From contig JBOGGR010000327.1 in NCBI GenBank assembly GCA_050744025.1, positions 1-13,468 of the forward strand: 13,468 nucleotides of DNA, written 5' to 3'. Origin of the DNA: Acidimicrobiales bacterium (GTDB taxonomy: Bacteria > Actinomycetota > Acidimicrobiia > Acidimicrobiales > JAJPHD01). A program made the translations under genes and the position numbers. This document shows positions 2,706 to 13,468 of this stretch, one piece after another. The notes under the pieces are model-generated. The model made no database searches. It worked only from the letters and a program-made list of their open reading frames with translations, and was not told where the DNA came from. The stretch's first letter is position 1. Every line of letters begins with the position of its first letter.

Positions 2706-3425
2706 TCACTCAGCGCGCCGCTCCCTTGGTGTCGCCTTCCGCGGCGGCGCCTTCTCCAGGTCGGGGGATGCCGGTGCCACGCCGAAGATGCGACCCAGGT
2801 CGGCGCCCCGGCCCGCCTTGCCGTTGCGTACCCGGCCGTCGCGCCCGGCACCGCCCGGCGCGGCCCCGTCGACTCGGGGGGCGTTGCCTCGGGCGGCTCC
2901 GTCGTGCCCGGCCTTCTCGAGGTGGCGACCATCCCGGCCTTCGCCCTCCTCGTCCTCGTCCTCCTCTTCGACGGCGTCTCCGCTCCCGTCCTCGTCCTGC
3001 TCGGACTCCTCGGGGTGGTAGCCGTGCCAGCCGCGGTCCTCCTCGTCGTCGTCGTCGTCGTACTCCTCGTCGTCCCCGACCGTCCCCTCGTCCTCGACGT
3101 CGGTGTCCACTGCAGGCTCGATCTTGCGGGATATGGCCTGGCGGATGAACTCCAGCTCCAGGTCCGGACCCACCTCGAGGATGGTGCGGTCGCCCTCGAT
3201 CGAGACCACCCGCCCGACGATCCCCCCGATGGTGACGACGGTGTCGCCCTCCTCCACCGACTTCTGCGCCTGCTGTTGGCGCTGCTGTCGCTTGCGCTGG
3301 GGCCTGAAGATGAGGAGGTACGCGATGATCAGGAGGGGGATGATGAAGATGATGAAGCTGCCGGAGCCGCTGGACTTCTTTGCTGCGGCGACGAGCAGGG
3401 TCGGAACCAGGAAGATCGTGTGCAT
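2706..3425 (-). CDS. yajC: Preprotein translocase subunit YajC with an unusually long low-complexity C-terminal tail, acidic first and then basic
   Basis: The N-terminal 100 aa (MHTIFLVPTLLVAAAKKSSGSGSFIIFIIPLLIIAYLLIFRPQRKRQQRQQQAQKSVEEGDTVVTIGGIVGRVVSIEGDRTILEVGPDLELEFIRQAISRKIE) match the YajC fold, with a single TM followed by a GGIxG beta domain. ATG at 3425. The gene is in the conserved position between tgt and secD. The remaining ~140 aa are D/E-rich (EEYDDDDDEEDRG...EEEDEDEEGEG) and then R/G/A-rich. Confidence 0.85.
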   Translation of the reverse strand: MHTIFLVPTLLVAAAKKSSGSGSFIIFIIPLLIIAYLLIFRPQRKRQQRQQQAQKSVEEGDTVVTIGGIVGRVVSIEGDRTILEVGPDLELEFIRQAISRKIEPAVDTDVEDEGTVGDDEEYDDDDDEEDRGWHGYHPEESEQDEDGSGDAVEEEDEDEEGEGRDGRHLEKAGHDGAARGNAPRVDGAAPGGAGRDGRVRNGKAGRGADLGRIFGVAPASPDLEKAPPRKATPRERRAE

Positions 3426-3594: not shown

Positions 3595-4788
3595 TCACGA
3601 CCAGACCGCGGCCACCTCGGCCCGGAGCCGGGCCAGCCGCCCGGCCGCCACCGCCGCCCTGGCCCGGGCCACCAGCCCGAGGGTCCAGGCCAGGTTGTGG
3701 AGGCTGAGCAGGCGGAGGACGGTCGGCTCCCCCACGGCCATGAGGTGACGGAGGTAGGCCCGGGACCAACGGGCGCACACCGGGCAGGGACAGGCTGGGT
3801 CCGGCGGCGCCGGGTCGGCCCGGTGGGCGGCCCGGCGCAGGGACACCGGGCCCGTGGCGGTCAGCACCCGGCCGTGGCGGGCCAGACGGGTGGGCGCCAC
3901 GCAGTCGAACAGGTCGACGCCGAGGGCGACGGCCTCCACCAGGCCGAGCGGATCGCCGACCCCCATCAGGTAGCGCGGCCGGTCCGGGGGCAGCTCCGCC
4001 AGGGCGGCAGCCAGCGCTGCCAGCATCTGGTCCCGGCGCTCCCCCACGGACAGCCCGCCGATGCCGTAGCCGGCGAAACCCAGCTCGGCCGTGCGCCGGG
4101 CGCTCCCGGCCCGCAGGCCCTCGTCCACCCCGCCTTGGACGATCCCGAACAGGGCCTGCCCCTCCCGCCGGTGAGCCCGGCGGGCCCGCTCGGCCCACCG
4201 CAGGGTGCGATCGGCCGCCTCCTGCACCACCTCGGCCGGCGCCGGGAGGCGCGGGCATACATCGAGGGCCATCTGGATGTCCGCTCCGAGCTGCTCCTGG
4301 ACGGCGACGGCCCCCTCGGGCGTCAGCAGGTGGAGGCTGCCGTCGTAGACCGACTTGAACCGGACCCCCTCCTCCTCCACCTGGCCCGAGAGAGACATGA
4401 CCTGGAAGCCCCCGGAGTCGGTGAGGACGTGGCCGGGCCAGGCGGCGAAGCCGTGGATGCCCCCGAGGGCGGCCACCACGTCCGCCCCGGGCCGGAGCAT
4501 GAGGTGATAGGTGTTCGAGAGGACCACCTGGGCGCCCAGGTCCTCGAGATCAGCGCCGGAGAGGGCCCGCACGCTGCCCCTGGTGGCGACCGGCATGAAG
4601 CACGGCGTGGCGAAGCTCCCCCTGGGCGTCTCCACCCGGCCGGCCCGAGCCCCGCCGTCGGTGGCCTCGACCACCAGACGCAGGTCGGCGCTCGCTGCCC
4701 CCCCCCGGCCGCCGGCCGGGTCGCCGGCGCTCAAAGGGTCGCCGGCGCTCAACGGGTCGCCGGCGCTCAGCGGGTCGCCGGCGCTCAA
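3595..4788 (-). CDS. tgt: Queuine tRNA-ribosyltransferase (tRNA-guanine transglycosylase). The start is uncertain: a TTG at 4788 overlaps the queA stop in a TTGA arrangement and would add an N-terminal (LSAGDP)x4 repeat; the conservative alternative is a GTG at 4674.
   Basis: The C-terminal 360 aa of the track's 1029-aa ORF read ...LRLVVEATDGGARAGRVETPRGSFATPCFMPVATRGSVRALSGADLEDLGAQVVLSNTYHLMLRPG...LTDSGGFQVMSL...GIVQGG...YLMGVGDP...CPCPVCARWSRAYLRHL. This is the Tgt catalytic core with its CxCxxC...H zinc site. The part of that ORF upstream of ~4800 is low-complexity read-through and is not real. GC3 stays high in the Tgt frame through the 18-bp repeats, which supports the long start. The GTG at 4674 aligns with the canonical Tgt N-terminus (E. 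coli MKFELDTTDGRARRG). Confidence 0.85.
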   Translation of the reverse strand: MSAGDPLSAGDPLSAGDPLSAGDPAGGRGGAASADLRLVVEATDGGARAGRVETPRGSFATPCFMPVATRGSVRALSGADLEDLGAQVVLSNTYHLMLRPGADVVAALGGIHGFAAWPGHVLTDSGGFQVMSLSGQVEEEGVRFKSVYDGSLHLLTPEGAVAVQEQLGADIQMALDVCPRLPAPAEVVQEAADRTLRWAERARRAHRREGQALFGIVQGGVDEGLRAGSARRTAELGFAGYGIGGLSVGERRDQMLAALAAALAELPPDRPRYLMGVGDPLGLVEAVALGVDLFDCVAPTRLARHGRVLTATGPVSLRRAAHRADPAPPDPACPCPVCARWSRAYLRHLMAVGEPTVLRLLSLHNLAWTLGLVARARAAVAAGRLARLRAEVAAVWS

Positions 4789-4792
4789 CGTC
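4721..4792. repeat. 18-bp tandem repeat x4 (tcgccggcgctcaVNggg; unit starts at 4721, 4739, 4757 and 4775) at the queA 3' end and tgt 5' junction. A C9 homopolymer lies immediately adjacent at 4698-4706.
   Basis: Read directly in the sequence. In the tgt frame it encodes the hexapeptide SAGDPL x4. The last copy contains the queA stop codon (4785-4787). Confidence 0.85.
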
Positions 4793-5783
4793 GGGCGACC
4801 AGCATGGCGTCGCCGAACGAGAGGAAGCGGTAGCCCGAGTCGCGGGCGACCCCGTACAGGTGGCGCCACCGCTCCCCGCAGAACGCCTCCACCATCAGCA
4901 GGAGGGACGACCGGGGAAGGTGGAAGTTCGTGAGGAGCACGTCCACCACCCGCCAGTCGTGGTGGCCGTGGATGTAGAGCGACGTCCGGCCGGCCAGGCG
5001 GCCGGTCACCTCCACCGTCTCGAGCGCCCTGACCGTGGTCGTGCCCACCGCCACCACCCGGCGGGCCGTGCGGCAGGCCTCCATCGTCGAGGCGGGCACG
5101 TCGTAGGCCTCGGTGTGGATCACGTGGTCCTCGGGACGCTCGGCCGTCACCGGGCGGAACGTGTCCAGGCCGACGGCGAGGTCGACCGCGACCACTCCGA
5201 TCCCGGCCCGGCTGAGCCGGTCCAGCACAGGAGCGTCGAGGTGGAGCCCGGCCGTCGGCGCCGCCACCGACCCCGGGCGATGGGCGTACACGGTCTGGTA
5301 GCGCGACGGGTCGGCCAGGGGCCGGTGGAGGTAGGGCGGCAGGGGCAGGCTGCCGTGGACCTCGGGCAGGGAGGGATCCAGGAGGTTGACGACCCGCCGG
5401 CCCTCGCCGAGGTCCTCCCCGACCTCCAGGGCGGCCGCCTCCCCGGCGTAGAGGGTGTCGCCGGGGCGCACCTTGCGGGAGTGGCGAACGAGGGCCTCCC
5501 AGCGCACCGGCGCAGCGGCGGTCCCCCGCGCGAGGGGTGTGAGGAGGAGGACCTCGACCGCCCCGCCGGTAGGCCGGCGAAGATGGAGCCGGGCCGGGAG
5601 GACCTTGGTGTCGTTCACCACGACCAGGTCGCCAGGCCCCAGCAGGTCGGGGAGGTCCGCCACCCTCCTGTGGTCCAGGGTGCCACCCGGGTCGGTGGCC
5701 ACGAGGAGGCGGGCCGAGCTGCGGGGCTCCGCCGGCTCCTGGGCGATGGCGGTCTCCGGGAGGTCGTAGTCGTACGCAGCCAT
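4785..5783 (-). CDS. queA: S-adenosylmethionine:tRNA ribosyltransferase-isomerase QueA. ATG at 5783; an alternative GTG at 5795 would add VGQP.
   Basis: The translation MAAYDYDLPETAIAQEPAEPRSSARLLV...VVNDTKVLPARL...YQTVYA...PGSVAAPTAGLHL...VGTTTVRALE...LTNFHLPRSSLLLMVEAF...YRFLSFGDAML aligns along its whole length with E. coli QueA (MRVTDFSFELPESLIA...YQTVYS...PGAVAAPTAGLHF...NFHLPEST...YRFFSYGDAMF). Confidence 0.92.
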   Translation of the reverse strand: MAAYDYDLPETAIAQEPAEPRSSARLLVATDPGGTLDHRRVADLPDLLGPGDLVVVNDTKVLPARLHLRRPTGGAVEVLLLTPLARGTAAAPVRWEALVRHSRKVRPGDTLYAGEAAALEVGEDLGEGRRVVNLLDPSLPEVHGSLPLPPYLHRPLADPSRYQTVYAHRPGSVAAPTAGLHLDAPVLDRLSRAGIGVVAVDLAVGLDTFRPVTAERPEDHVIHTEAYDVPASTMEACRTARRVVAVGTTTVRALETVEVTGRLAGRTSLYIHGHHDWRVVDVLLTNFHLPRSSLLLMVEAFCGERWRHLYGVARDSGYRFLSFGDAMLVARR

Positions 5784-5834
5784 GGGCTGACCCACGAGGT
5801 GACCGTAGCCGGGTCCCGGAGACCGGGCCGCTCG

Positions 5835-6449
5835 TCAACCGGTGGCGGCTCGGACGGCCGAGTACGCGGCGAAGCCGAGCAGGATCAGGGCCATGCACTG
5901 CTGGGCTCGGTAGATGGGCACCCGTTCCAGGACCTTCGCCCCGACAGACAGAGCCAGGCCGGAGACGGCCCACAGGGCTGCCAGCGCCCCCACGGCCACC
6001 GACAGCGGGTCGGCGTACTGGGCCGCGAAGTTGGCCGTCGCCACCTGGGTGATATCGCCCCACTCGGCCAGGAACACCACTCCGAACGATGTGGCCACCA
6101 CCCGCCCCAGCGGGGCGGGGCGGCGCCCACTTCGGCGCGGGGGCGCCGCCTCGGCGAGAGCCGGCCCCTCGGCGGGAGGCCCCCGGCGGGCGGTGAGGAG
6201 CACGAAGACTCCTCCCGCGGCGAACAGCACAGCCACGACGGCCTCCACCAGCCGGTGGGGCAGCAGGGCGAACAGGCCCCCGGCCACCACGGCCACTGCG
6301 ACCTCGACCACGAAAGCCCCCGCCGCGCCCAGCCACACCGGGAACGGCCGGTGGCGGGTGGACAGGACCAACGAGGCGATCAGGCTCTTGTCGGGCAGCT
6401 CGCCGACGAAGACCACCCCGAACACCGTGGCGGCCAGGGCCAGGTTCAC
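5835..6449 (-). CDS. UPF0016/GDT1 (TMEM165, MneA-like) family putative Mn2+/Ca2+:H+ transporter. GTG start at 6449 lies 7 nt downstream of a GGGAGG SD.
   Basis: It has two copies of the family signature E-x-G-D-(K/R)-(S/T), namely ELPDKS and EWGDITQ, each at the start of a three-TM repeat. The protein is about 205 aa and hydrophobic. The track ORF (to 6632) extends through the riboswitch-like leader and is implausible. A GTG preceded by gtcGGGAGGccggcg gives an N-terminus (V/M)NLALAATVFGVVFVGELPDKS. Confidence 0.8.
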   Translation of the reverse strand: MNLALAATVFGVVFVGELPDKSLIASLVLSTRHRPFPVWLGAAGAFVVEVAVAVVAGGLFALLPHRLVEAVVAVLFAAGGVFVLLTARRGPPAEGPALAEAAPPRRSGRRPAPLGRVVATSFGVVFLAEWGDITQVATANFAAQYADPLSVAVGALAALWAVSGLALSVGAKVLERVPIYRAQQCMALILLGFAAYSAVRAATG

Positions 6450-6455
6450 CGCCGG

Positions 6456-6461
6456 CCTCCC
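6456..6461 (-). promoter_or_regulatory. Shine-Dalgarno GGGAGG for the UPF0016 transporter gene
   Basis: The minus strand reads gtcGGGAGGccggcgGTG; the plus-strand equivalent is cctccc at 6456-6461. Confidence 0.6.
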
Positions 6462-6480
6462 GACGTTCCCACGTGGGGGG

Positions 6481-6511
6481 GCTGTGCTGGCAACCGTGGC
6501 TGTGCTGGCAA
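6481..6511. repeat. 13-nt direct repeat x2 (plus gctgtgctggcaa; minus-strand RNA UUGCCAGCACAGC) separated by 5 nt, inside the 5' leader of the UPF0016 gene
   Basis: Read directly in the sequence: 6481-6493 and 6499-6511. Its UGCCAGC core is complementary to the GCUGGCA segment of the upstream aptamer candidate. Confidence 0.75.
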
Positions 6512-6587
6512 GCGCCCACTCCCTCCGGCTCTGGAGCCGGGGGGAAGGCGGGGAGCCACTTCGACCCGGCCCGACGGGCAGGTCGAA

Positions 6588-6691
6588 GGTCTCGCTCGTC
6601 CATCTCACACGATGGACCCAGTGGCCGGGCACCTGTAGGTGCCAGCATGTCGACCGGCTGGCAGGCGGAGCTACTCCCCTTCACCTGTCAG
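6588..6691 (-). promoter_or_regulatory. Candidate yybP-ykoY (manganese) riboswitch aptamer in the 5' leader of the UPF0016/GDT1 transporter gene
   Basis: The minus strand reads cugacagGUGAAGGGGAGUAGCuccgccugccagccggucGACAUGCUGGCAccuacaggugcccggccacuggguccaucgugugagauggacGAGCGAGACC. It contains the hallmark L1 element GGGGAGUAGC, a CGACAU..UGGCA segment, and a 3' GAGnGAGACC end, as recalled for the yybP-ykoY consensus. Length is about 104 nt. It sits immediately upstream of a UPF0016-family gene, one of the canonical gene classes controlled by this riboswitch. A possible -10 TAGGCT (plus 6690-6695) lies just 5' of it. No covariance-model scan was possible here. Confidence 0.55.
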
Positions 6692-6946
6692 CCTAGCGCG
6701 CCGGGCCGGCGCCAAGTGCGATGACCTCGTCGGCGAGTGGGCCTGCCCAGCAAGCGGACCAGCGACACCCGCCGGCAGGGGTTACCGTGGGCCATGGCCT
6801 CCGGCACCTGGAAGACCCTGCTCCGCCGCTTCCTCAGGCTGTGGCGGAGCCGCCGCCAGAAGAGGCAGCCGGGGCGGCGCTCCCGCTGGTAGCGGGCCGG
6901 GGGCAGCCTCGTCTGGTGAGATCCACGATCCGGGGAGCCCGGCTGC

Positions 6947-8128
6947 CTACGCTCCAGTCTCCTCGACCCGGGCCATCACTCCATCGGTGCCCGTGCCGGG
7001 GCCGGCGGAGGCGGTGCCGGAGCTGGGCCGGCCCGCCTGGGCCGTCCTTCCGGGCGCCGCCCGCTGGAGGGCGTCCAGGATGGCCATGCCCTGGCCGATC
7101 AGGCCCGTCAGCATCTCGCTGATGCCATCGGCGCCGTTCAGTACCGTCAGGTTGGATCCTGACAGCCCCGAAGCGGCCGCCGTCACGAGATCGGGCAGCT
7201 GGTCGACGACCCGGTTGGAGGCGAGCAGCTGCTGGTTGCCCTCCTTCAGGCTGTCCGCCCGCAGGCGCATGGCGTCCGCCTCGGCCTGGGCCAGGGTCCG
7301 CTGCCTGTACGCCTCAGCGTCGGCCGGCCGCCGCACTGTGCCCTCGAGCCGCTTGGCGGCAAGGTCGGCCTCCAGGACGGCGCGCTTCGTCTGCTCGGCG
7401 ATCGTGCGCTGCTCCGCCGCCGCCTGGGCGAGGGGGCCGGCCTGGCTGGCCTCGGCCTGGGCCGTGTCCACCTCGGCCTGGTAGCCAGCCTGGGCGATCC
7501 TGGCCTGGCGGACGTACTCGGCCTTGCGGGCCTCGGACTCCTGCTCCCGCTCGGTGGCCTCCTGCTCGGCCTGGGCCTGGGCGACCCGGGCATCCTTCTG
7601 GACGACGGCGATGTGGGGAGCAGCCAGGCTCTTGATGTAGCCCGTCTCGTCGGTTATCTCCTGGATCTGGAGGCTGTCCACCACCAGCCCCAGCTTCTCC
7701 ATCTCCGAAGCCGACGACGCCTTGACCTCCTGGGTCAGCCGATCCCGCTCCCGGATGATCTCCTCGACTGTCAGGCCACCGACGATCGACCGGAGATGGC
7801 CGGAGAAGACCCGCCCGGCCAGGGATTCCATGAGATCCTGCTGGTCCAGGAAGCGGCGGGCGGCATTGGCGATGGACGACTCGTCGTCGCCCACCTTGAA
7901 CACCACCACCGCCTGGACCAGCAGGGGGATGCCCTGCTTGGTCACGCAGGGCTCGGAGATGCTGGCCTCCCGCAGGTCCAGCGACATGTAGCGGGCCTTC
8001 TGCTTGACCGGGACGACGAAGCAGCCATGACCTGTGATGATCCTGAACTGCGGGCCGCCGGGGTCCTTGTGCTTGGACCCGGAGATCACGAGGGCCTCGT
8101 TGGGGGCTGGGACCTTCCAGAACAGCAC
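6947..8128 (-). CDS. Flotillin-like SPFH/band-7 protein (YqiK/FloT family). GTG start at 8128 is preceded by a perfect AAGGAG SD.
   Basis: The N-terminus reads (V)LFWKVPAPNEALVISG...FRIITGHGCFVVP...SLDLREASISEPCVTKQGIPLLVQAVVVFKVGDD, which is the SPFH domain. It is followed by a long Ala/Gln/Glu-rich coiled coil (AQAQAEQEATEREQESEARKAEYVRQARIAQAGYQAEVDTAQAEA...) and a flotillin C-terminal domain. There is an in-frame TGA 60 nt upstream of the GTG, so no N-terminal hydrophobic anchor can be added. Confidence 0.9.
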   Translation of the reverse strand: MLFWKVPAPNEALVISGSKHKDPGGPQFRIITGHGCFVVPVKQKARYMSLDLREASISEPCVTKQGIPLLVQAVVVFKVGDDESSIANAARRFLDQQDLMESLAGRVFSGHLRSIVGGLTVEEIIRERDRLTQEVKASSASEMEKLGLVVDSLQIQEITDETGYIKSLAAPHIAVVQKDARVAQAQAEQEATEREQESEARKAEYVRQARIAQAGYQAEVDTAQAEASQAGPLAQAAAEQRTIAEQTKRAVLEADLAAKRLEGTVRRPADAEAYRQRTLAQAEADAMRLRADSLKEGNQQLLASNRVVDQLPDLVTAAASGLSGSNLTVLNGADGISEMLTGLIGQGMAILDALQRAAPGRTAQAGRPSSGTASAGPGTGTDGVMARVEETGA

Positions 8129-8134
8129 TGGGCT

Positions 8135-8140
8135 CTCCTT
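8135..8140 (-). promoter_or_regulatory. Shine-Dalgarno AAGGAG for the flotillin-like gene
   Basis: The minus strand reads ggtAAGGAGagcccaGTG, with 6 nt spacing to the GTG at 8128. Confidence 0.7.
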
Positions 8141-8327
8141 ACCAGTCGCAGGGGGCGACGACGACGCTGCGGGGAGAGCTCTGGTCCCTCACCATGCAAC
8201 GAGTGCCCTTGGGGATCGGCTGGCGCCCCTCCGAGTAGGCGGTGAAGGCCTCGGAGCCCCCCCGGACGAACAGGACGATCTCCCCTGGCCGATCCGCGTC
8301 GACCGGCACCGTGATCTGGCCGACCAT
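8139..8327 (-). CDS. Miniature NfeD-like protein consisting only of the C-terminal OB-fold beta-barrel domain, about 62 aa; a possible GTG start at 8348 would give 69 aa
   Basis: The last 62 codons of the track's 709-aa ORF are a wrong-frame read-through upstream of this point. They read MVGQITVPVDADRPGEIVLFVRGGSEAFTAYSEGRQPIPKGTRCMVRDQSSPRSVVVAPCDW. This matches the NfeD/YuaF C-terminal pattern G-x-V-x-V...G-x-V...G...A-x-S...I-x-x-G-x-x-V-x-V...G..L-V-V. Its stop lies 10 nt upstream of the flotillin start, the canonical nfeD-flotillin arrangement. The only space available before the upstream hydrolase stop (8408) is 80 bp, so no TM segment can be encoded. Confidence 0.55.
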   Translation of the reverse strand: MVGQITVPVDADRPGEIVLFVRGGSEAFTAYSEGRQPIPKGTRCMVRDQSSPRSVVVAPCDW

Positions 8328-8407
8328 GCCGAGGAGCGGCTCGTCCACCGGCTCACCAGTGGATTGCGGGTCGGGGCACGACCTCAGTGTAGGCGAGGGA
8401 GCGAGGC

Positions 8408-9172
8408 TCACCAGGGCCGGAGCCCGCCGAGGAAGTCCAGGACGGCACGGGCGAAGGCCGGACCGAGCATCGCGTTCATGTGGTTGCCTGGGACGGTGAC
8501 GGCCCTCCCCTCCTCCATCGGCTGGGCAAGCGGCTCGGGCCGCCCGGCCAGGGTGTCCTCGGACCCCGCCACCACCAGGCATGGCACGCCTACCTCTCCA
8601 GGAGTGGGTGCCGGCCACGAGGGCAACGCCCGCTGGAGGCAGGCCAGGGCAGAGCGGTCGGAGTGGGTGGCGTCGGCGAAGGCGCGAAAGGCGCGACCCG
8701 TCCGGTCCTCCACGTCGGCCAGCCGGCGCGCCTCCATGGCGGCGGCGACGGCCTCGGCGGCGGCCGCGTCCGTGCCCGTGAGCGTCGCCTCCCCCACCCC
8801 GCCGAGGACGAGGGCCCGGACCCGGGGATCGGCCGCTGCGACCAGGAGGCCTAGGCGTGCCCCCAGCGAGTACCCGCCCACCACCGCACCCGGGACGCCG
8901 GCCTGGTCGAGCAGGCCAGCGGCGTCCTCCACGAGTCGCCCGGGCGCGTATGCGTCCACCTGGTGGGGCGCCTCCGAGCGCCCGTGGCCCCGCAGGTCCA
9001 GCGCCAGCACCCGGTAGCCGGCGCCGGCCAGAGCGCCGGCGATCCCGGGCCGGACCCAGTTCACGAAGGCGTTGGCGGCGTAGCCGTGCAGGAGGACCAC
9101 CGAGGGGCCGTCGCCCTGGTCGTCGTAGGAGAGGGCGGTGCCGTCGGCGCTGCGGAGCGTGTTGAACGTCAC
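8408..9172 (-). CDS. Alpha/beta-fold serine hydrolase (esterase/lipase-type)
   Basis: 254 aa. It has the HG oxyanion motif (VVLLHGYAANAF), the nucleophile elbow G-Y-S-L-G (VVGGYSLGARLG), a late acid (VVAGSEDTLAG) and a C-terminal His (VPGNHMNAM). ATG at 9172. It is tightly packed between the EAL gene (stop 9200) and the mini-NfeD gene. Confidence 0.85.
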   Translation of the reverse strand: MTFNTLRSADGTALSYDDQGDGPSVVLLHGYAANAFVNWVRPGIAGALAGAGYRVLALDLRGHGRSEAPHQVDAYAPGRLVEDAAGLLDQAGVPGAVVGGYSLGARLGLLVAAADPRVRALVLGGVGEATLTGTDAAAAEAVAAAMEARRLADVEDRTGRAFRAFADATHSDRSALACLQRALPSWPAPTPGEVGVPCLVVAGSEDTLAGRPEPLAQPMEEGRAVTVPGNHMNAMLGPAFARAVLDFLGGLRPW

Positions 9173-9199
9173 GATCCCCGGCGGCGCGCCCTACGCCGC

Positions 9200-11239
9200 T
9201 CAGGCGAGGCCGGGAGAGCGGAGGTCGGCTCCGCCGGCCCGAGGGGATACGCCGTGGAGCCCCCGGAGGGGGCTGGCGACGAACGACATGAGGTCGTCCT
9301 CGGACAGCGGCCTCGAGATGTGATGGCCCTGGAGGAGGTCGAACCCGAAGCTGGCCATCCGGCGCAGGGTCTCCTCGTCCTCGACTCCCTCGGCCACCGC
9401 AGTGAGCCCGAGGCGGTGGGCCAGCTCCATGACGGTGCGGACGATGGCCTCGTCGGCCATCGAGGTCGACGAGCGCATCACGAACCGCTGGTCGACCTTC
9501 AGCTCGTCGAGCGGCAGGTGGGGAAGGGCGGCGAGGGAGGTGTAGCCGGTCCCGAAGTCGTCGATGGACACCCGGACGCCCCGGTCGTGCAGGGGCCGGA
9601 GCAGCCTGACTGCCTGCAGGAGGTCGGCGGCTGCGGTCTCGGTCACCTCCACCGTCAGGCTGGTCGAGGGGAGGGCGCGGGCCATGAGCTCGGAGAGGAG
9701 GCGGTCGGGCAGCTCGGGGTCGGTGAGGGTCTTGGCAGAAAGGTTGACCGACACGGGCATGTGTATACCCGCCCGGCGCCAGCGGACCTGGGCATCGAGC
9801 GCCTCGGAGAGCACCCATCCGCCCAACCGGTCGATGAGCCCGGTCCGCTCGGCCAGCAGGATGAAGCGTCCGGCCGGGACGTTGCCGTGGATCGGGCTGC
9901 TCCACCGCAGCAGGGCCTCCACGGCGACGGTCTGCCCGGAGTCGGGCGTCATCTGCGGCTGGTAGGCCAACCAGAGCTCCCCCCTGTCGCCGGCCAGGCG
10001 CAGGTCGGACAGGAGAGCCAGGTCGTCGGCCGTCATCGCCCCGTGGGCCCCGTCCCAGACCGCGATGACCCGCCCACTGGATGCGGCCCGGCGGGCGCTG
10101 AGGGACGCCCGGCGCACGAGCTCGGGGACATCGGTGCCATCGCGGGGCGCCACGGCGAGACCCACGTGGGCCCGCAGCGCCACCTCGACGCCGTCCACGA
10201 GGTAGTGGCCGGCACTGATCGCCTGGGCCAGCCGCCGGGCGAGGGACCAGGCGCCGTCGGGCGACCACATCAGGGGGACGTTGGAGTCCAGCTCCCGCCG
10301 GACCGACAGCGGCTCGTCCTCCAGGGCCTCGGTGACAACCAGCTCGTCACCGTCCACCCGGCCGATGACGGCGTCGGCTGGAAGGACCTGTCCGAGGTCC
10401 TCCACGGCCCGCCGGAGCAGCTCCGTCCCGACCCGGTACCCCAGAGCCTCACGGGCCTCGCCGATGCCCTCGAGCACCACCGCCGCCACGACGAACCCCG
10501 GGCGGTCCCGGTGGCTGGCCAGGTGACGGGCCAGGCCGGGGCCGTTCGGCAGGCCGGTGTCCGCGTCCACCGTGCTCTGGCGCCGGGCCGAGCGCGTCAG
10601 GAGGAGGACCGTCAGCAGTGCCGACGCCGTCGTGACAGTGGTGATGGCCGCGACGGCGGCGGCCCGGCCGGCGCCCTCCGAGCCCAGCATCGCCGCCCAC
10701 AGCCCGAGGCCGGCGAGGAGCGGGTAGCCGACGACGGCGCGAACCCCGAGGAAGAGAGCGACGAACACCCCTACCGGGACCACGAACGTCATGTAGGCGA
10801 ACCCGAGCCCGGAGCCGTGCTCCCCCCACACCAGCACCCAGACCTCCACGAGGGCGAGCACCGCCAGCAGCTGACCCCCGCGGGCGCTCACCTTGTCGAC
10901 CCGGAGCAGCACGACCCAGACGGCCGCCGTCGCCGCGCTGACCGCGATCACAGGCCCGGTCCTCAACCCCGGCGTCCGCAGGGCGAGCGCCGAAGCCGGC
11001 CACGACACCAGGCCCAGCCCGTAGACGAGGCGCATCACCGACAGAGGGCTCAACAGCTCCAGCGGCGCGTCGAGGGCGAACCAGGACCGCGTCTTGGGGA
11101 ACAGGCGGCTGCGCACCTGGACGCCGGCCGGCAGGCGGGCGCTGGTGACCGAGTGGTTGCGCTCGCCGGGCGGACCGGCCCAGCCCCGCCAGGCCGGATC
11201 GGGCGCGCGCGACGGCCTCATCGCCCACCTCATCGGCAC
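9200..11239 (-). CDS. Multi-pass membrane sensor with a degenerate GGDEF domain and an intact EAL domain, i.e. a putative c-di-GMP phosphodiesterase. Start uncertain; an internal M at VMRLVY is possible.
   Basis: About 5-6 N-terminal TM helices (LVYGLGLVSW..., VIAVSAATAAVWVVLL, LLAVLALVEVWVLVW, FVVPVGVFVALFLGV, LLAGLGLWAAML, AITTVTTASALLTVLLL). Then a GGDEF-like domain in which DADTGLPNGPGL replaces DxLTGLxNRR and GRVDGDELVV replaces aRyGGDEFvv; both are degenerate. Then a complete EAL domain: ELWLAYQPQ, EALLRW, N-loop VNLSAKTL, DDFGTGYTS, KVDQRFV, AEGVEDEE and QGHHISRP. Confidence 0.85.
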   Translation of the reverse strand: MPMRWAMRPSRAPDPAWRGWAGPPGERNHSVTSARLPAGVQVRSRLFPKTRSWFALDAPLELLSPLSVMRLVYGLGLVSWPASALALRTPGLRTGPVIAVSAATAAVWVVLLRVDKVSARGGQLLAVLALVEVWVLVWGEHGSGLGFAYMTFVVPVGVFVALFLGVRAVVGYPLLAGLGLWAAMLGSEGAGRAAAVAAITTVTTASALLTVLLLTRSARRQSTVDADTGLPNGPGLARHLASHRDRPGFVVAAVVLEGIGEAREALGYRVGTELLRRAVEDLGQVLPADAVIGRVDGDELVVTEALEDEPLSVRRELDSNVPLMWSPDGAWSLARRLAQAISAGHYLVDGVEVALRAHVGLAVAPRDGTDVPELVRRASLSARRAASSGRVIAVWDGAHGAMTADDLALLSDLRLAGDRGELWLAYQPQMTPDSGQTVAVEALLRWSSPIHGNVPAGRFILLAERTGLIDRLGGWVLSEALDAQVRWRRAGIHMPVSVNLSAKTLTDPELPDRLLSELMARALPSTSLTVEVTETAAADLLQAVRLLRPLHDRGVRVSIDDFGTGYTSLAALPHLPLDELKVDQRFVMRSSTSMADEAIVRTVMELAHRLGLTAVAEGVEDEETLRRMASFGFDLLQGHHISRPLSEDDLMSFVASPLRGLHGVSPRAGGADLRSPGLA

Positions 11240-11290: not shown

Positions 11291-13468
11291 TCAGGATGCC
11301 GAGGGGACCATGGCCACCAGGCTGCGGGCCCGGCGCAGCAGCGGGACCGCGCCCAGGCGCTCGAAGGTCCCGGCGGCCAGGGCAGCGAGCTCTGGCGCCC
11401 GGTCCGGCCGGTCCTGCGCAGCCAGCCACTCGGCGTGGTCCAGCCGGCTGAACGCCAGCCAGTACGGATAGCCCAGGCGTTCGAGCAGGGCCTCGCTCTC
11501 GGCGAAGTCCTCCTCCACCCCGGCGTGCTCCCCAGCCCCGGCCCCGGCCCGAGCCTCGACCCCCGTCCCGGCCCCGGCTCGCGTCCCGTCCCCCGCCCCC
11601 GTCCCGGCCCCCGCCCGGAACCGGGCCCGGAACCGGGCCGCCTGGGCCCGGAGGAACGGAGGAACCAGCCCGGCCGGCTGGTCAGCCACGAGGGCCAGGA
11701 GGGAGGCGGCCTCCTCCCTCCGGTCCAGCTCGAGGGCCGCCTCGACGGCAAGCGGCCAGGACAGCCGGAACGCCTCGTTGCACAGGCCCTCGGCCAGGAG
11801 GGACTCCCGCGCCGTCGTGCCCGCCAGCTCCAGGGCCTCGGGGATGCGGCTGTCGATGATGGCCACCGCGGCCGAGGCGTAGGCCCAGGCCAGGCGGTAC
11901 TGGACCTCGTCGGTGTGCTCCCAGGCGGCGATCCCGGCGAGGGCCGCCCTGGCCTCGGGGACCTGGCCGCGCATGACGTGGAGCATGACCGCACGGTCGG
12001 CGAACGAGTCGGCGCCCGGCCGGTCACGGGAGAGCTCGTCGAGGAGCCGCTCGGCCTCCTCGCAGCGCCCGGCCTGGAGGTGCTGCAGGGTCAGGTTGGC
12101 CCCAGCCAGCTTCTCGCCCGGTCGGTCCCCCAGGCGGCGGAACAGCTCCAGTGCGAGGACGGCGTGCTCGGCGGCCCCGGGCTGGTCGCTCTGGGCCCTG
12201 ATCTCTCCGCTCAGGGTGTGGGCGAAGGCGAGCTCCCGGGTGAGGTCGTGGGCCAGGGCGATGGCGACGATCCCGTCGGAGAGCACGGTGGCCTCCTGGC
12301 GCCGGCCGGCGAAGAGGAGCAGCATGCTCTTGCGCCTGAGGCAGGTGCAGAGGATCTCGGGCAGCTCGAGGGCCTCGGCCAGGAAGAGGGCCGTCTCCAG
12401 GTGGGCCGCCGCCTCCTCGCGGTGGCCGGCCAGCAGCAGGGCGCCAGCCATCGCCTGGGACAGGTCGGCCATGCCGGCTGTCCGGTCCCCCGGGCGGAGG
12501 ACCTCGAGGGCGGCGCGCAGGCGGGATATGGCCTCCTCGTGGCGGCCGAGGTGCCCGAGGGCCTCGGCCGTGCCGGCGACCAGGCGGGCCGCCTCGCGGT
12601 GACGCCCGGCGGCGGCGTGGGCGGCAATGGCCGCCTCCAGGAGCTCCAGGGACCGCTCGGCCCGGCCCGCCTGCCCGGCCATGCGCCCGGCCTGCTCGGT
12701 CAGAGCGGTGGCCTCCGCCTCCCCGCTGGCCAGGCCGGCCGCGGTGCAGTAGGCCGCCTCGGCCGCCTCCGGCGCCCCGACTGCCGCCGCCCGGGCTCCG
12801 GCCCGGGCGTAGGCCGCCAGCGCCTCGGCCCGGATCTCCCCGGCGTCCTCGTCCTCGGGCCCCGCCTCGTAGGCCTCCCGGTAGTGGGCGGCGATCACCT
12901 CGGCCATCTCCTCGCCGTCCCGGGCGAAGGCGGCACGCAGGTGGGCGGCCACGGCCCGATGGCGGGCCTTGCGCTCCCGCCGGCTCAACATGTCGTGGGC
13001 GACCGTGCGCAGCAGCGTCTGCACGAAGGTGTACTGCCCGCGCTCGGGCGAGAGGCGGTCGGCCCGGATGGCCAGGACCTCCTTGCGCACCAGCGAGCCG
13101 AGCAGCCGTTCCACCTCGGCCTCCGGGAGGCCTGTGACGGCGCCGACGGCAGCGCGGGGGAAGCTGCTGCCGAGCACGGACAGGCCCTTCACCAGCTCCC
13201 GCTCGGCCGGCTCCAGCCCGTCCAGGCGGGCGGCGATGAGCGAGGTCAGGCTGGACGGGACGTCGAGGTCCCCGATCTCCCCGACCAGGGTGTACACGCC
13301 GTCCCGGGGGAGGATCACGTCCCGGTCCATCAGGGACCGGACGGTCTCCACGGCGTAGAGGGGGACGCCCTCGGCCCGGGCCACGATCCGGGTCAGGGCG
13401 GCCTTGGGCATGCCGGGGACCAGGTCCTCCAGCAGGCGGCGCATGTCGGGCTCGGGGAGGGGGTCCAG
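11291..13468 (-). CDS. C-terminal region of a large STAND/AAA+ (AAA_16-type) ATPase-TPR family signalling protein, with about 725 aa inside the window. The N-terminus lies beyond the right edge.
   Basis: The frame is open to the window edge (...LDPLPEPDM RRLLEDLVPGMPKAALTRIVARAEGVPLYAVETVRSLMDRDVI...). This is the post-NTPase 'RxEGNPLFxxEL' helical motif typical of actinobacterial ATPase-TPR/LuxR-class and cyclase-associated regulators. After it come about 500 aa of Ala/Leu/Glu/Arg-rich TPR-like helical repeats (EALAAYARAG..., LGHLGRHEEAISRLRAALEV..., ALELFRRLGDRPGEKLAGANLTLQHLQAGRCEEAERLL...). Stop at 11291. Confidence 0.8.
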   Translation of the reverse strand: MDPLPEPDMRRLLEDLVPGMPKAALTRIVARAEGVPLYAVETVRSLMDRDVILPRDGVYTLVGEIGDLDVPSSLTSLIAARLDGLEPAERELVKGLSVLGSSFPRAAVGAVTGLPEAEVERLLGSLVRKEVLAIRADRLSPERGQYTFVQTLLRTVAHDMLSRRERKARHRAVAAHLRAAFARDGEEMAEVIAAHYREAYEAGPEDEDAGEIRAEALAAYARAGARAAAVGAPEAAEAAYCTAAGLASGEAEATALTEQAGRMAGQAGRAERSLELLEAAIAAHAAAGRHREAARLVAGTAEALGHLGRHEEAISRLRAALEVLRPGDRTAGMADLSQAMAGALLLAGHREEAAAHLETALFLAEALELPEILCTCLRRKSMLLLFAGRRQEATVLSDGIVAIALAHDLTRELAFAHTLSGEIRAQSDQPGAAEHAVLALELFRRLGDRPGEKLAGANLTLQHLQAGRCEEAERLLDELSRDRPGADSFADRAVMLHVMRGQVPEARAALAGIAAWEHTDEVQYRLAWAYASAAVAIIDSRIPEALELAGTTARESLLAEGLCNEAFRLSWPLAVEAALELDRREEAASLLALVADQPAGLVPPFLRAQAARFRARFRAGAGTGAGDGTRAGAGTGVEARAGAGAGEHAGVEEDFAESEALLERLGYPYWLAFSRLDHAEWLAAQDRPDRAPELAALAAGTFERLGAVPLLRRARSLVAMVPSAS
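11521..11650. repeat. In-frame low-complexity GC-rich microrepeat region inside the ATPase-TPR gene. It contains the motifs gtcccggccccg/gccccggcccc and a 12-bp tandem repeat x2 (cccggaaccggg at 11624-11635 and 11636-11647).
   Basis: Read directly in the sequence. It encodes RFRARFRAGAGTGAGDGTRAGAGTGVEARAGAGAGEHAG. Confidence 0.7.

Follow-up and report, generated by a model that had tools for sequence, protein, structure and literature searches.

A stand-alone NfeD-type barrel gene upstream of a flotillin gene in an Acidimicrobiales genome

NfeD, YuaF and YqiJ have been described as membrane proteins that carry three or more hydrophobic segments ahead of a barrel domain (PMC2636767, PMC11222466, PMC11237479). 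NfeD was described by Hinderhofer et al. (2009) as a protein of 140–150 amino acids (aa) with three N-terminal hydrophobic stretches and a beta domain (PMC2636767). In Staphylococcus aureus, the isolated oligonucleotide/oligosaccharide-binding (OB) domain of NfeD binds the start of the FloA coiled coil through beta3–beta4, contacts between OB domains (beta1–beta2) join FloA dimers into larger assemblies, and the transmembrane part of NfeD handles lipid recognition and targeting (PMC11222466). A cage of 26 SPFH–NfeD heterodimers is reported for Escherichia coli QmcA–YbbJ, as cited in PMC13086221, and the role of NfeD beside SPFH scaffolds is still unclear (PMC13086221). Eukaryotic flotillin binds membranes by a hydrophobic, Trp-rich SPFH1 surface, and acylation is needed (PMC11260169). 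Here, a small gene at positions 8139–8348 (minus strand) was analyzed in a stretch of 13,468 nucleotides (nt) from an Acidimicrobiales bacterium (assembly GCA_050744025.1, contig JBOGGR010000327.1), hereafter called the window. It precedes a flotillin gene, and we are close to certain that it is a real gene for a stand-alone NfeD-type barrel linked to flotillin.

The G+C content of the window is ∼70–80%, and in the six-frame list of open reading frames (ORFs) the small ORF was not listed separately but formed the 3′ end of a 709-aa ORF at 8139..10268 on the minus strand, whose final 62–69 codons read VDEPLLGMVGQITVPVDADRPGEIVLFVRGGSEAFTAYSEGRQPIPKGTRCMVRDQSSPRSVVVAPCDW up to the stop. In the frame of the small ORF, G+C at codon positions 1/2/3 was 0.70/0.51/0.93 over 8142–8348, and the same frame upstream (8349–10268) gave 0.91/0.77/0.54, a non-coding pattern. 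The alpha/beta hydrolase gene at 8408–9172 gave 0.81/0.56/0.91 in its own frame. Because codon-position G+C switches to the coding pattern exactly over 8142–8348, the 709-aa ORF upstream of 8348 is a spurious wrong-frame artefact. A preliminary description of the window, made before this analysis, had already placed an ORF at the tail of that artefact; its coordinates were right, as were the distances of 10 nt to the flotillin start and 80 nt from the hydrolase stop. The product of 69 aa, from a GTG start at 8348 to a TAA stop at 8141–8139, is identical to the hypothetical protein ACRDZQ_02205 annotated by NCBI in the Acidimicrobiales metagenome-assembled genome (MAG). No hit was obtained in Rfam and tRNA scans of the entire window, so there is no pointer to an RNA element under the ORF.

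Homologues were searched exhaustively with HMMER against 1.84 billion representative proteins (E ≤ 1e-3). This search returned 97 clusters at 50% identity (best E 1e-13), nearly all of 56–125 aa, and a profile search returned at least 324 clusters at 90% identity. The family is mostly 64–80 aa long, and the median length of the 120 best homologues is 70 aa. A word-indexed search started from the 69-aa peptide found nothing besides this protein; the relatives were found by the exhaustive HMMER search and by a flotillin-guided scan. Carriers include Acidimicrobiales, Streptomyces, Kitasatospora, Kribbella, Nocardioidaceae, Dormibacteria and WPS-2. The small gene is under strong purifying selection: among close pairs, nucleotide differences at codon positions 1/2/3 numbered 5998/3642/27548, with 25131 synonymous versus 8965 non-synonymous codon changes. 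In the alignment of short proteins only (A2), eight residues are invariant (G7, G22, E23, R29, G30, G31, E33 and R60). With 97 clusters and a conserved synteny, the signal stands far above chance. The codon-position G+C, the NCBI annotation, the two sets of homologue clusters and the excess of synonymous changes together establish 8139–8348 as a genuine protein-coding gene.

Most members of the family are named "hypothetical protein". Others bear a misleading name, either "membrane protein" or, on some 70-aa homologues in IMG, "membrane-bound ClpP family serine protease", which is an automatic carry-over. The ClpP-class serine protease domain, a feature of long NfeD/STOPP proteins, was absent from the small protein by Pfam, and there is no room for it. 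It had been anticipated that gene callers may miss the gene. That is not so in the window, where NCBI annotates it; in Kitasatospora sp. NPDC001175 (L090), on the other hand, a homologue at 2274–2462 (tblastn E 1.5e-15) lies directly upstream of flotillin, and the annotation shows no gene from 1933 to 2501, so that in at least this genome the small gene was apparently overlooked. In two further proteins, P0045 (216 aa) and P0050 (71 aa), a beginning like that of the small NfeD-like protein runs on into a flotillin-like part; a frameshift, a deletion or an assembly artefact has probably joined the two adjacent genes.

The family and fold of the small protein were then compared with known domains. 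PF01957 (NfeD) was the sole Pfam match of the window protein (E 0.0013, 19.3 bits); it matched 19 of 47 family members at E < 0.01 (best 6.2e-5), and a few homologues carry a precomputed match. When the family profile A1 was compared with solved NfeD domains, YuaF (2K14) was matched with E 7.4e-9, PH1510-C (3WWV) with E 5e-4 and PH0471 with E 0.17; the profile A2 gave 1.4e-7 for YuaF and 1.6e-3 for PH1510-C. AlphaFold2, run with a 104-sequence alignment, predicted five strands (residues 9–14, 22–28, 31–39, 50–58 and 61–66) with a mean predicted local distance difference test score (pLDDT) of 94.3, and the barrel core (residues 9–66) is encoded by 8151–8324. In a Foldseek search against the PDB, the top five matches were all NfeD C-terminal domains (2k14, 3wwv, 3cp0, 2k5h and 2exd), with template modelling (TM) scores of 0.62–0.78. 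The best of them, YuaF (2k14), had a TM score of 0.78, a root-mean-square deviation of 2.1 Å and 30% identity. Ranks 6–13 were cold-shock and S1/RPA OB-folds (E ∼0.1, TM score 0.4–0.68). As judged from the profiles and the predicted structure, the small protein is an NfeD-type OB-fold barrel, that is, the C-terminal partner-binding domain alone. This agrees with the NfeD-like OB-fold of the preliminary description, for which the hidden Markov model match, the profile match to YuaF and the predicted five-stranded barrel each speak, although the Pfam score lies below the cut-off. The profile comparisons place it closer to the NfeD2 type (YuaF/YqiJ) than to the stomatin-associated NfeD1, because YuaF is matched far better than PH1510-C and PH0471 and because the partner matches FloT and flotillin-1/2.

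A membrane anchor was not predicted for this protein. Hydropathy over 19 residues peaked at 0.58 in the window protein, and none of the 120 best homologues exceeded 1.67. The hydrolase stop and the start of the small gene are 59 nt apart (spacer 8349–8407), which leaves no room for three N-terminal membrane helices, so the membrane-free form proposed at the outset was upheld. In 33 of 76 loci, an in-frame stop stands only 8–17 codons before the conserved core, and such close stops rule out a lost membrane domain. The distant homologue P0071 (193 aa) was the only one with transmembrane helices. On this sequence evidence the small protein is soluble and without an N-terminal membrane anchor, and the loss of the anchor is not recent. 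In Streptomyces niveus (L088), the small gene is closely preceded by a gene (4155–4613) for a 152-aa protein that has several hydrophobic stretches. The idea that this protein is a split-off membrane half of NfeD was rejected, as the protein is not kept in the window or the other loci. No description of a transmembrane-less NfeD was found in the literature; the coverage of this search was limited, and absence is not proof.

The start codon was assessed by conservation. An alternative in-frame ATG at 8325–8327 would yield 62 aa, and the hydrolase stop (8410–8408) lies 80 nt from this ATG and 59 nt from GTG 8348. In alignment A2, the invariant Gly7 and a majority Asp at position 2 both lie upstream of ATG 8327. 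They belong to a lead-in motif, D-x-x-x-[VL]-G, whose counterpart in YuaF is DDLRG (D-x-L-x-G). Of the in-frame start codons, only GTG 8348 keeps Asp2 and Gly7, and relatives of the same subclade carry Leu, Thr or Arg at the position of the window's Met8 but no Met. A smaller MAFFT alignment had matched Met8-Val-Gly of the window to Met1-Val-Gly of Kribbella, in support of the ATG; in the larger alignment A2, Kribbella Gly3 pairs with the invariant Gly7 of the window, and the earlier match was rejected as a coincidence of register. Because the invariant Gly7 and the conserved Asp2 would be lost with the ATG start, GTG 8348, which is also the choice of NCBI, is favored by the alignment. The preliminary description had named both codons as candidates and had called the Shine–Dalgarno (SD) sequence weak; the latter holds, and of its two candidates the GTG is the more likely.

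The neighborhood of the gene was examined in 80 loci that were located via the flotillin protein and searched for the small protein with tblastn. In 76 of them, a homologue immediately preceded the flotillin gene. The four exceptions were two loci at contig ends, one partial flotillin match and one distant Lachnospiraceae flotillin (30% identity). The same adjacency was seen in all further loci read (L081–L083, L084–L087, L088/89 of S. niveus, L090 of Kitasatospora, L091 and L092). A longer intact NfeD at this position, which the preliminary description had taken as the sign of a degraded remnant, was not found in the relatives; the short form is conserved. Neighbors other than flotillin differ between relatives, so that the conserved unit is a two-gene pair. 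At the junction in the window (8129–8141, read from the sequence), the TAA stop is separated from the flotillin GTG (8128) by 10 nt, and an AAGGAG SD sequence at 8140–8135 overlaps the stop of the small gene and stands 6 nt ahead of the flotillin GTG. The two genes are in different reading frames, and the stop-to-start gaps in relatives are similarly short (1–48 nt). The small gene opens this conserved module of two genes, and the 10-nt gap and the overlapping SD sequence suggest that it is probably translationally coupled with flotillin.

The partner encoded at 6947–8128 (393 aa, Pfam Band_7 E 2.7e-26) was also analyzed. It starts MLFWKVPAPNEALVISG, has no N-terminal membrane helix (maximum hydropathy 1.42), and is preceded by an in-frame stop 21 codons upstream of its start. 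The NCBIfam model of FloT (NF058507) scored 180 bits against an equivalog cut-off of 700; profile positions 1–22, which cover the hairpin, were missing, and the match began at position 23. The SPFH domain and the coiled-coil region are both there, and by these comparisons the partner is a flotillin-type SPFH protein and not a FloT equivalog. It aligned with human flotillin-1 at E 5.5e-28, residue 8 to residue 6, so that the two starts are in register (MLFWKVPAPNEA...). The monomer model showed an SPFH domain, long helices at 164–229 and 232–324, a C-terminal helix and a disordered tail. The 120 best flotillin homologues, including those of S. niveus and Kitasatospora, are all anchor-less, and Phe3 and Trp4 are invariant in 53 flotillin homologues. 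The missing anchor of the partner itself goes beyond what had been described for the window before.

It was considered whether all partner flotillins are anchor-less, and this was rejected: most of the distant set (Kribbella, Nocardioidaceae and WPS-2) have an N-terminal transmembrane helix. These helices led to a picture of two subclades. In subclade A (Kribbella, Nocardioidaceae, WPS-2 and Dormibacteria), the core of the small protein reads MVG[KR]xGRVTGxIxPGxVGEVM...PPRTV, and the flotillins have a clear N-terminal transmembrane helix, e.g., MLWTYLIAGAVALVILLILFRMVWRVAEPNEA. In subclade B, to which the window belongs together with L001/L002, L081–L083, L086, L087, L091, L092, S. niveus and Kitasatospora, the core is D-x-x-L-x-G-x-x-G-x-V-T-V-P-I-P-x-x-G-P-G-E-[VI], and the flotillins begin M[LF]FW[HKR]VPxPNEA, without a hydrophobic segment. 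At the subclade-A module of a Candidatus Dormibacteria MAG (L084), a PspA/IM30 gene at 5754–6548 directly follows flotillin, which echoes reported links of PspA to flotillin/band-7 proteins.

The best explanation as a whole, to which we assign a probability of about 0.78, is that the small protein is a soluble, barrel-only NfeD subunit that is made in step with flotillin, binds it and aids its oligomerization. Physical binding is proposed by analogy with S. aureus, and the barrel would dock on cytoplasmic flotillin at the junction of the SPFH domain and the coiled coil. The putative interface is the conserved charged beta3–beta4 face. Conserved residues cluster in beta3 (E33 invariant; A34, F35 and A37 near-invariant) and beta4 (R50, V53 and E55 near-invariant), and invariant residues also stand in the adjoining turns (R29-G30-G31 and R60). 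Barrel–barrel contacts may then help flotillin protomers assemble into a ring or cage oligomer, and the small protein would act as an assembly or regulatory subunit, promoting or regulating flotillin oligomerization. Having no anchor, the barrel would reach this site and the membrane solely through flotillin. As to the mode of membrane attachment, subclade B flotillin is probably a peripheral membrane protein held by its SPFH1 face, to which the invariant N-terminal Phe3-Trp4 belong, as eukaryotic flotillins would suggest; alternatively, an unlinked recruiter may be involved, as YdjI needs YdjG and YdjH. A more specific version holds that the subclade B pair builds a eukaryote-like flotillin cage that contains the 69-aa barrel as a soluble, stoichiometric subunit and lies either peripherally on the membrane, via the aromatic SPFH1/N-terminal face, or even freely in the cytoplasm. 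We put this version forward tentatively, as a possibility that is rather unlikely to hold in full.

Several points weigh against a flotillin-binding NfeD subunit. The Pfam score of 19.3 bits falls short of the curated gathering score of PF01957 (29.1), and NCBIfam has no model that matches the small protein. No strong SD sequence was seen ahead of either GTG 8348 or ATG 8327. SPFH1 of the window flotillin was modelled at low confidence (pLDDT 53–62 for residues 1–40). Eukaryotic flotillins depend on acylation to bind membranes, and this modification is absent in bacteria. Moreover, the S. aureus structures are maps of ∼8 Å and concern a FloA-type, not a FloT-type, flotillin, so the interface may not transfer (PMC11222466).

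The alternative that deserves most attention accepts an NfeD-type barrel linked to flotillin but makes it a negative regulator or cap that limits oligomerization, or an adaptor that brings soluble clients. The same evidence on fold, family and synteny would fit it. The loss of the transmembrane part removes the lipid targeting and bridging of full-length NfeD, so that the remaining function may differ, and the invariant charged residues R29, E33 and R60 are absent from the aligned YuaF. However, characterized NfeD proteins promote and do not inhibit higher oligomers (PMC11222466, PMC13086221), the tight operon coupling suggests a stoichiometric subunit, and no third gene was conserved as a client in the loci read. 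A cap or adaptor is therefore doubtful in our view. One could also regard the protein as a small nucleic-acid-binding protein of a generic OB-fold or cold-shock-like kind that stands beside flotillin by chance, and cold-shock and S1/RPA folds do occur lower in the Foldseek list. However, the top five structural matches are NfeD domains, as are all significant sequence matches; RNP-type aromatic motifs are absent and the adjacency to flotillin is near-universal, which makes a chance neighbor very improbable.

The remaining alternatives deny the gene a function of its own. It might be a decaying remnant of a full-length membrane NfeD, a pseudogene fragment: full-length NfeD normally has the three N-terminal hydrophobic stretches (PMC2636767), the distant homologue P0071 has transmembrane helices, and the SD sequence of the small gene is weak. 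Yet the short form is kept in hundreds of clusters from Acidimicrobiales to WPS-2, in-frame stops lie just upstream, purifying selection is strong, eight residues are invariant and the fold is confidently predicted. The remnant is already effectively refuted, and hardly any weight is left to it. That the ORF is spurious, an untranslated wrong-frame tail in GC-rich DNA, might be thought from its position within the 709-aa ORF and from the frequency of long spurious ORFs in GC-rich genomes. Third-position G+C switches exactly at the intergenic spacer, though, and conservation at the protein level goes along with synonymous drift and with homologues across phyla, so that a spurious ORF has a vanishingly small chance of being right. 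The evidence thus leaves the soluble NfeD-type subunit of flotillin as the preferred reading.

All other genes of the window that were recognized in Pfam scans are also on the minus strand. A TPR protein is encoded at 11291–13444. The genes of the GGDEF/EAL protein (9200–11239) and the alpha/beta hydrolase (E 7.8e-18) come shortly before the small gene, at spacings of 27 nt and 59 nt, and all three may be transcribed together here; the first two are not kept in relatives. A scan of 6700–9400 for sigma-70 promoters and terminators gave nothing relevant, and the sigma-70 scan is uninformative for Actinomycetota. On the other side of flotillin, a GDT1 transporter (5835–6632), queA (4785–5795), tgt (3595 to ∼4716), yajC (2706–3425) and secD (1128–2651) follow. 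At 4717–4790, at the junction of the queA stop and the tgt start, an 18-bp tandem repeat is present in 4.1 copies with 92% matches. Read on the minus strand, it encodes (LSAGDP)x4 in frame with the tgt ORF, and is either an N-terminal extension of tgt or intergenic. A GC-rich repeat array of the CCCCGG type, with periods of 6, 18, 30 and 36, lies at 11530–11639, at the 3′ end of the TPR-protein gene.

These results reveal a widespread barrel-only, NfeD2-like family in Actinomycetota and neighboring phyla, and show that the barrel is an autonomous, selectable unit. Such a family separates partner binding from lipid targeting and transmembrane bridging. The picture of SPFH–NfeD pairs is not overturned; rather, a clean, culturable two-protein system for barrel function is offered. 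Hundreds of Actinomycetota carry the pair, culturable Streptomyces among them. The presence of the module in S. niveus, Kitasatospora and Kribbella makes genetic and biochemical tests feasible, on two proteins that are soluble and easy to express. The anchor-less flotillin also raises the question of how a membrane could be targeted without a helix or acylation. If the cage version were true, the pair would be a bacterial counterpart of eukaryotic flotillin architecture with an accessory subunit that eukaryotes lack, and a minimal system for isolating the function of the NfeD barrel without its membrane domain.

Among the known systems, the short and long NfeD1/STOPP proteins (PH0471, 2EXD; PH1510-C, 3WWV; E. 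coli YbbJ–QmcA) share the five-stranded barrel and the logic of an operon with an SPFH gene. They differ in their stomatin-type SPFH partners, in their transmembrane helices and in the ClpP-like protease of the long forms, and their sequence similarity to the small-protein family is weaker (E 5e-4 to 0.76). Eukaryotic flotillin-1/2 (9BQ2) resembles the window flotillin, which aligns with it from the first residues and likewise has no transmembrane helix; the eukaryotic proteins, however, have no NfeD partner (PMC2636767) and rely on acylation (PMC11260169). Bacillus subtilis YdjI is a precedent for an anchor-less bacterial SPFH protein; its recruitment depends on the membrane proteins YdjG and YdjH (PMC8581546), whereas the window module has no conserved membrane protein.

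The NfeD–FloA pair of S. aureus (Ukleja et al., 2024, PMC11222466) resembles the window pair in that an OB-like barrel is encoded beside flotillin. Its isolated barrel is a flotillin-binding, oligomer-bridging module, and by analogy the same function is proposed for the small protein. S. aureus NfeD has six transmembrane segments with a sterol-sensing-like lipid-recognition region, and FloA is short with a transmembrane helix of its own, whereas in the window pair neither protein has such a helix. The closest relative by both sequence profile and structure is YuaF/NfeD2 of B. subtilis (2K14), whose partner is FloT (YuaG). In yuaF–floT (PMC2636767), as here, the NfeD-type gene stands immediately upstream of a flotillin-type SPFH gene. 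YuaF and E. coli YqiJ, which is of the same type, have three transmembrane segments and a C-terminal barrel, while the small protein is the barrel alone, with 64–80 aa in its family and with its own invariant R29, E33 and R60, unlike YuaF. The motif D-x-L-x-G-x-x-G-x-V...GEV...GG[ST] is common to YuaF and the small protein.

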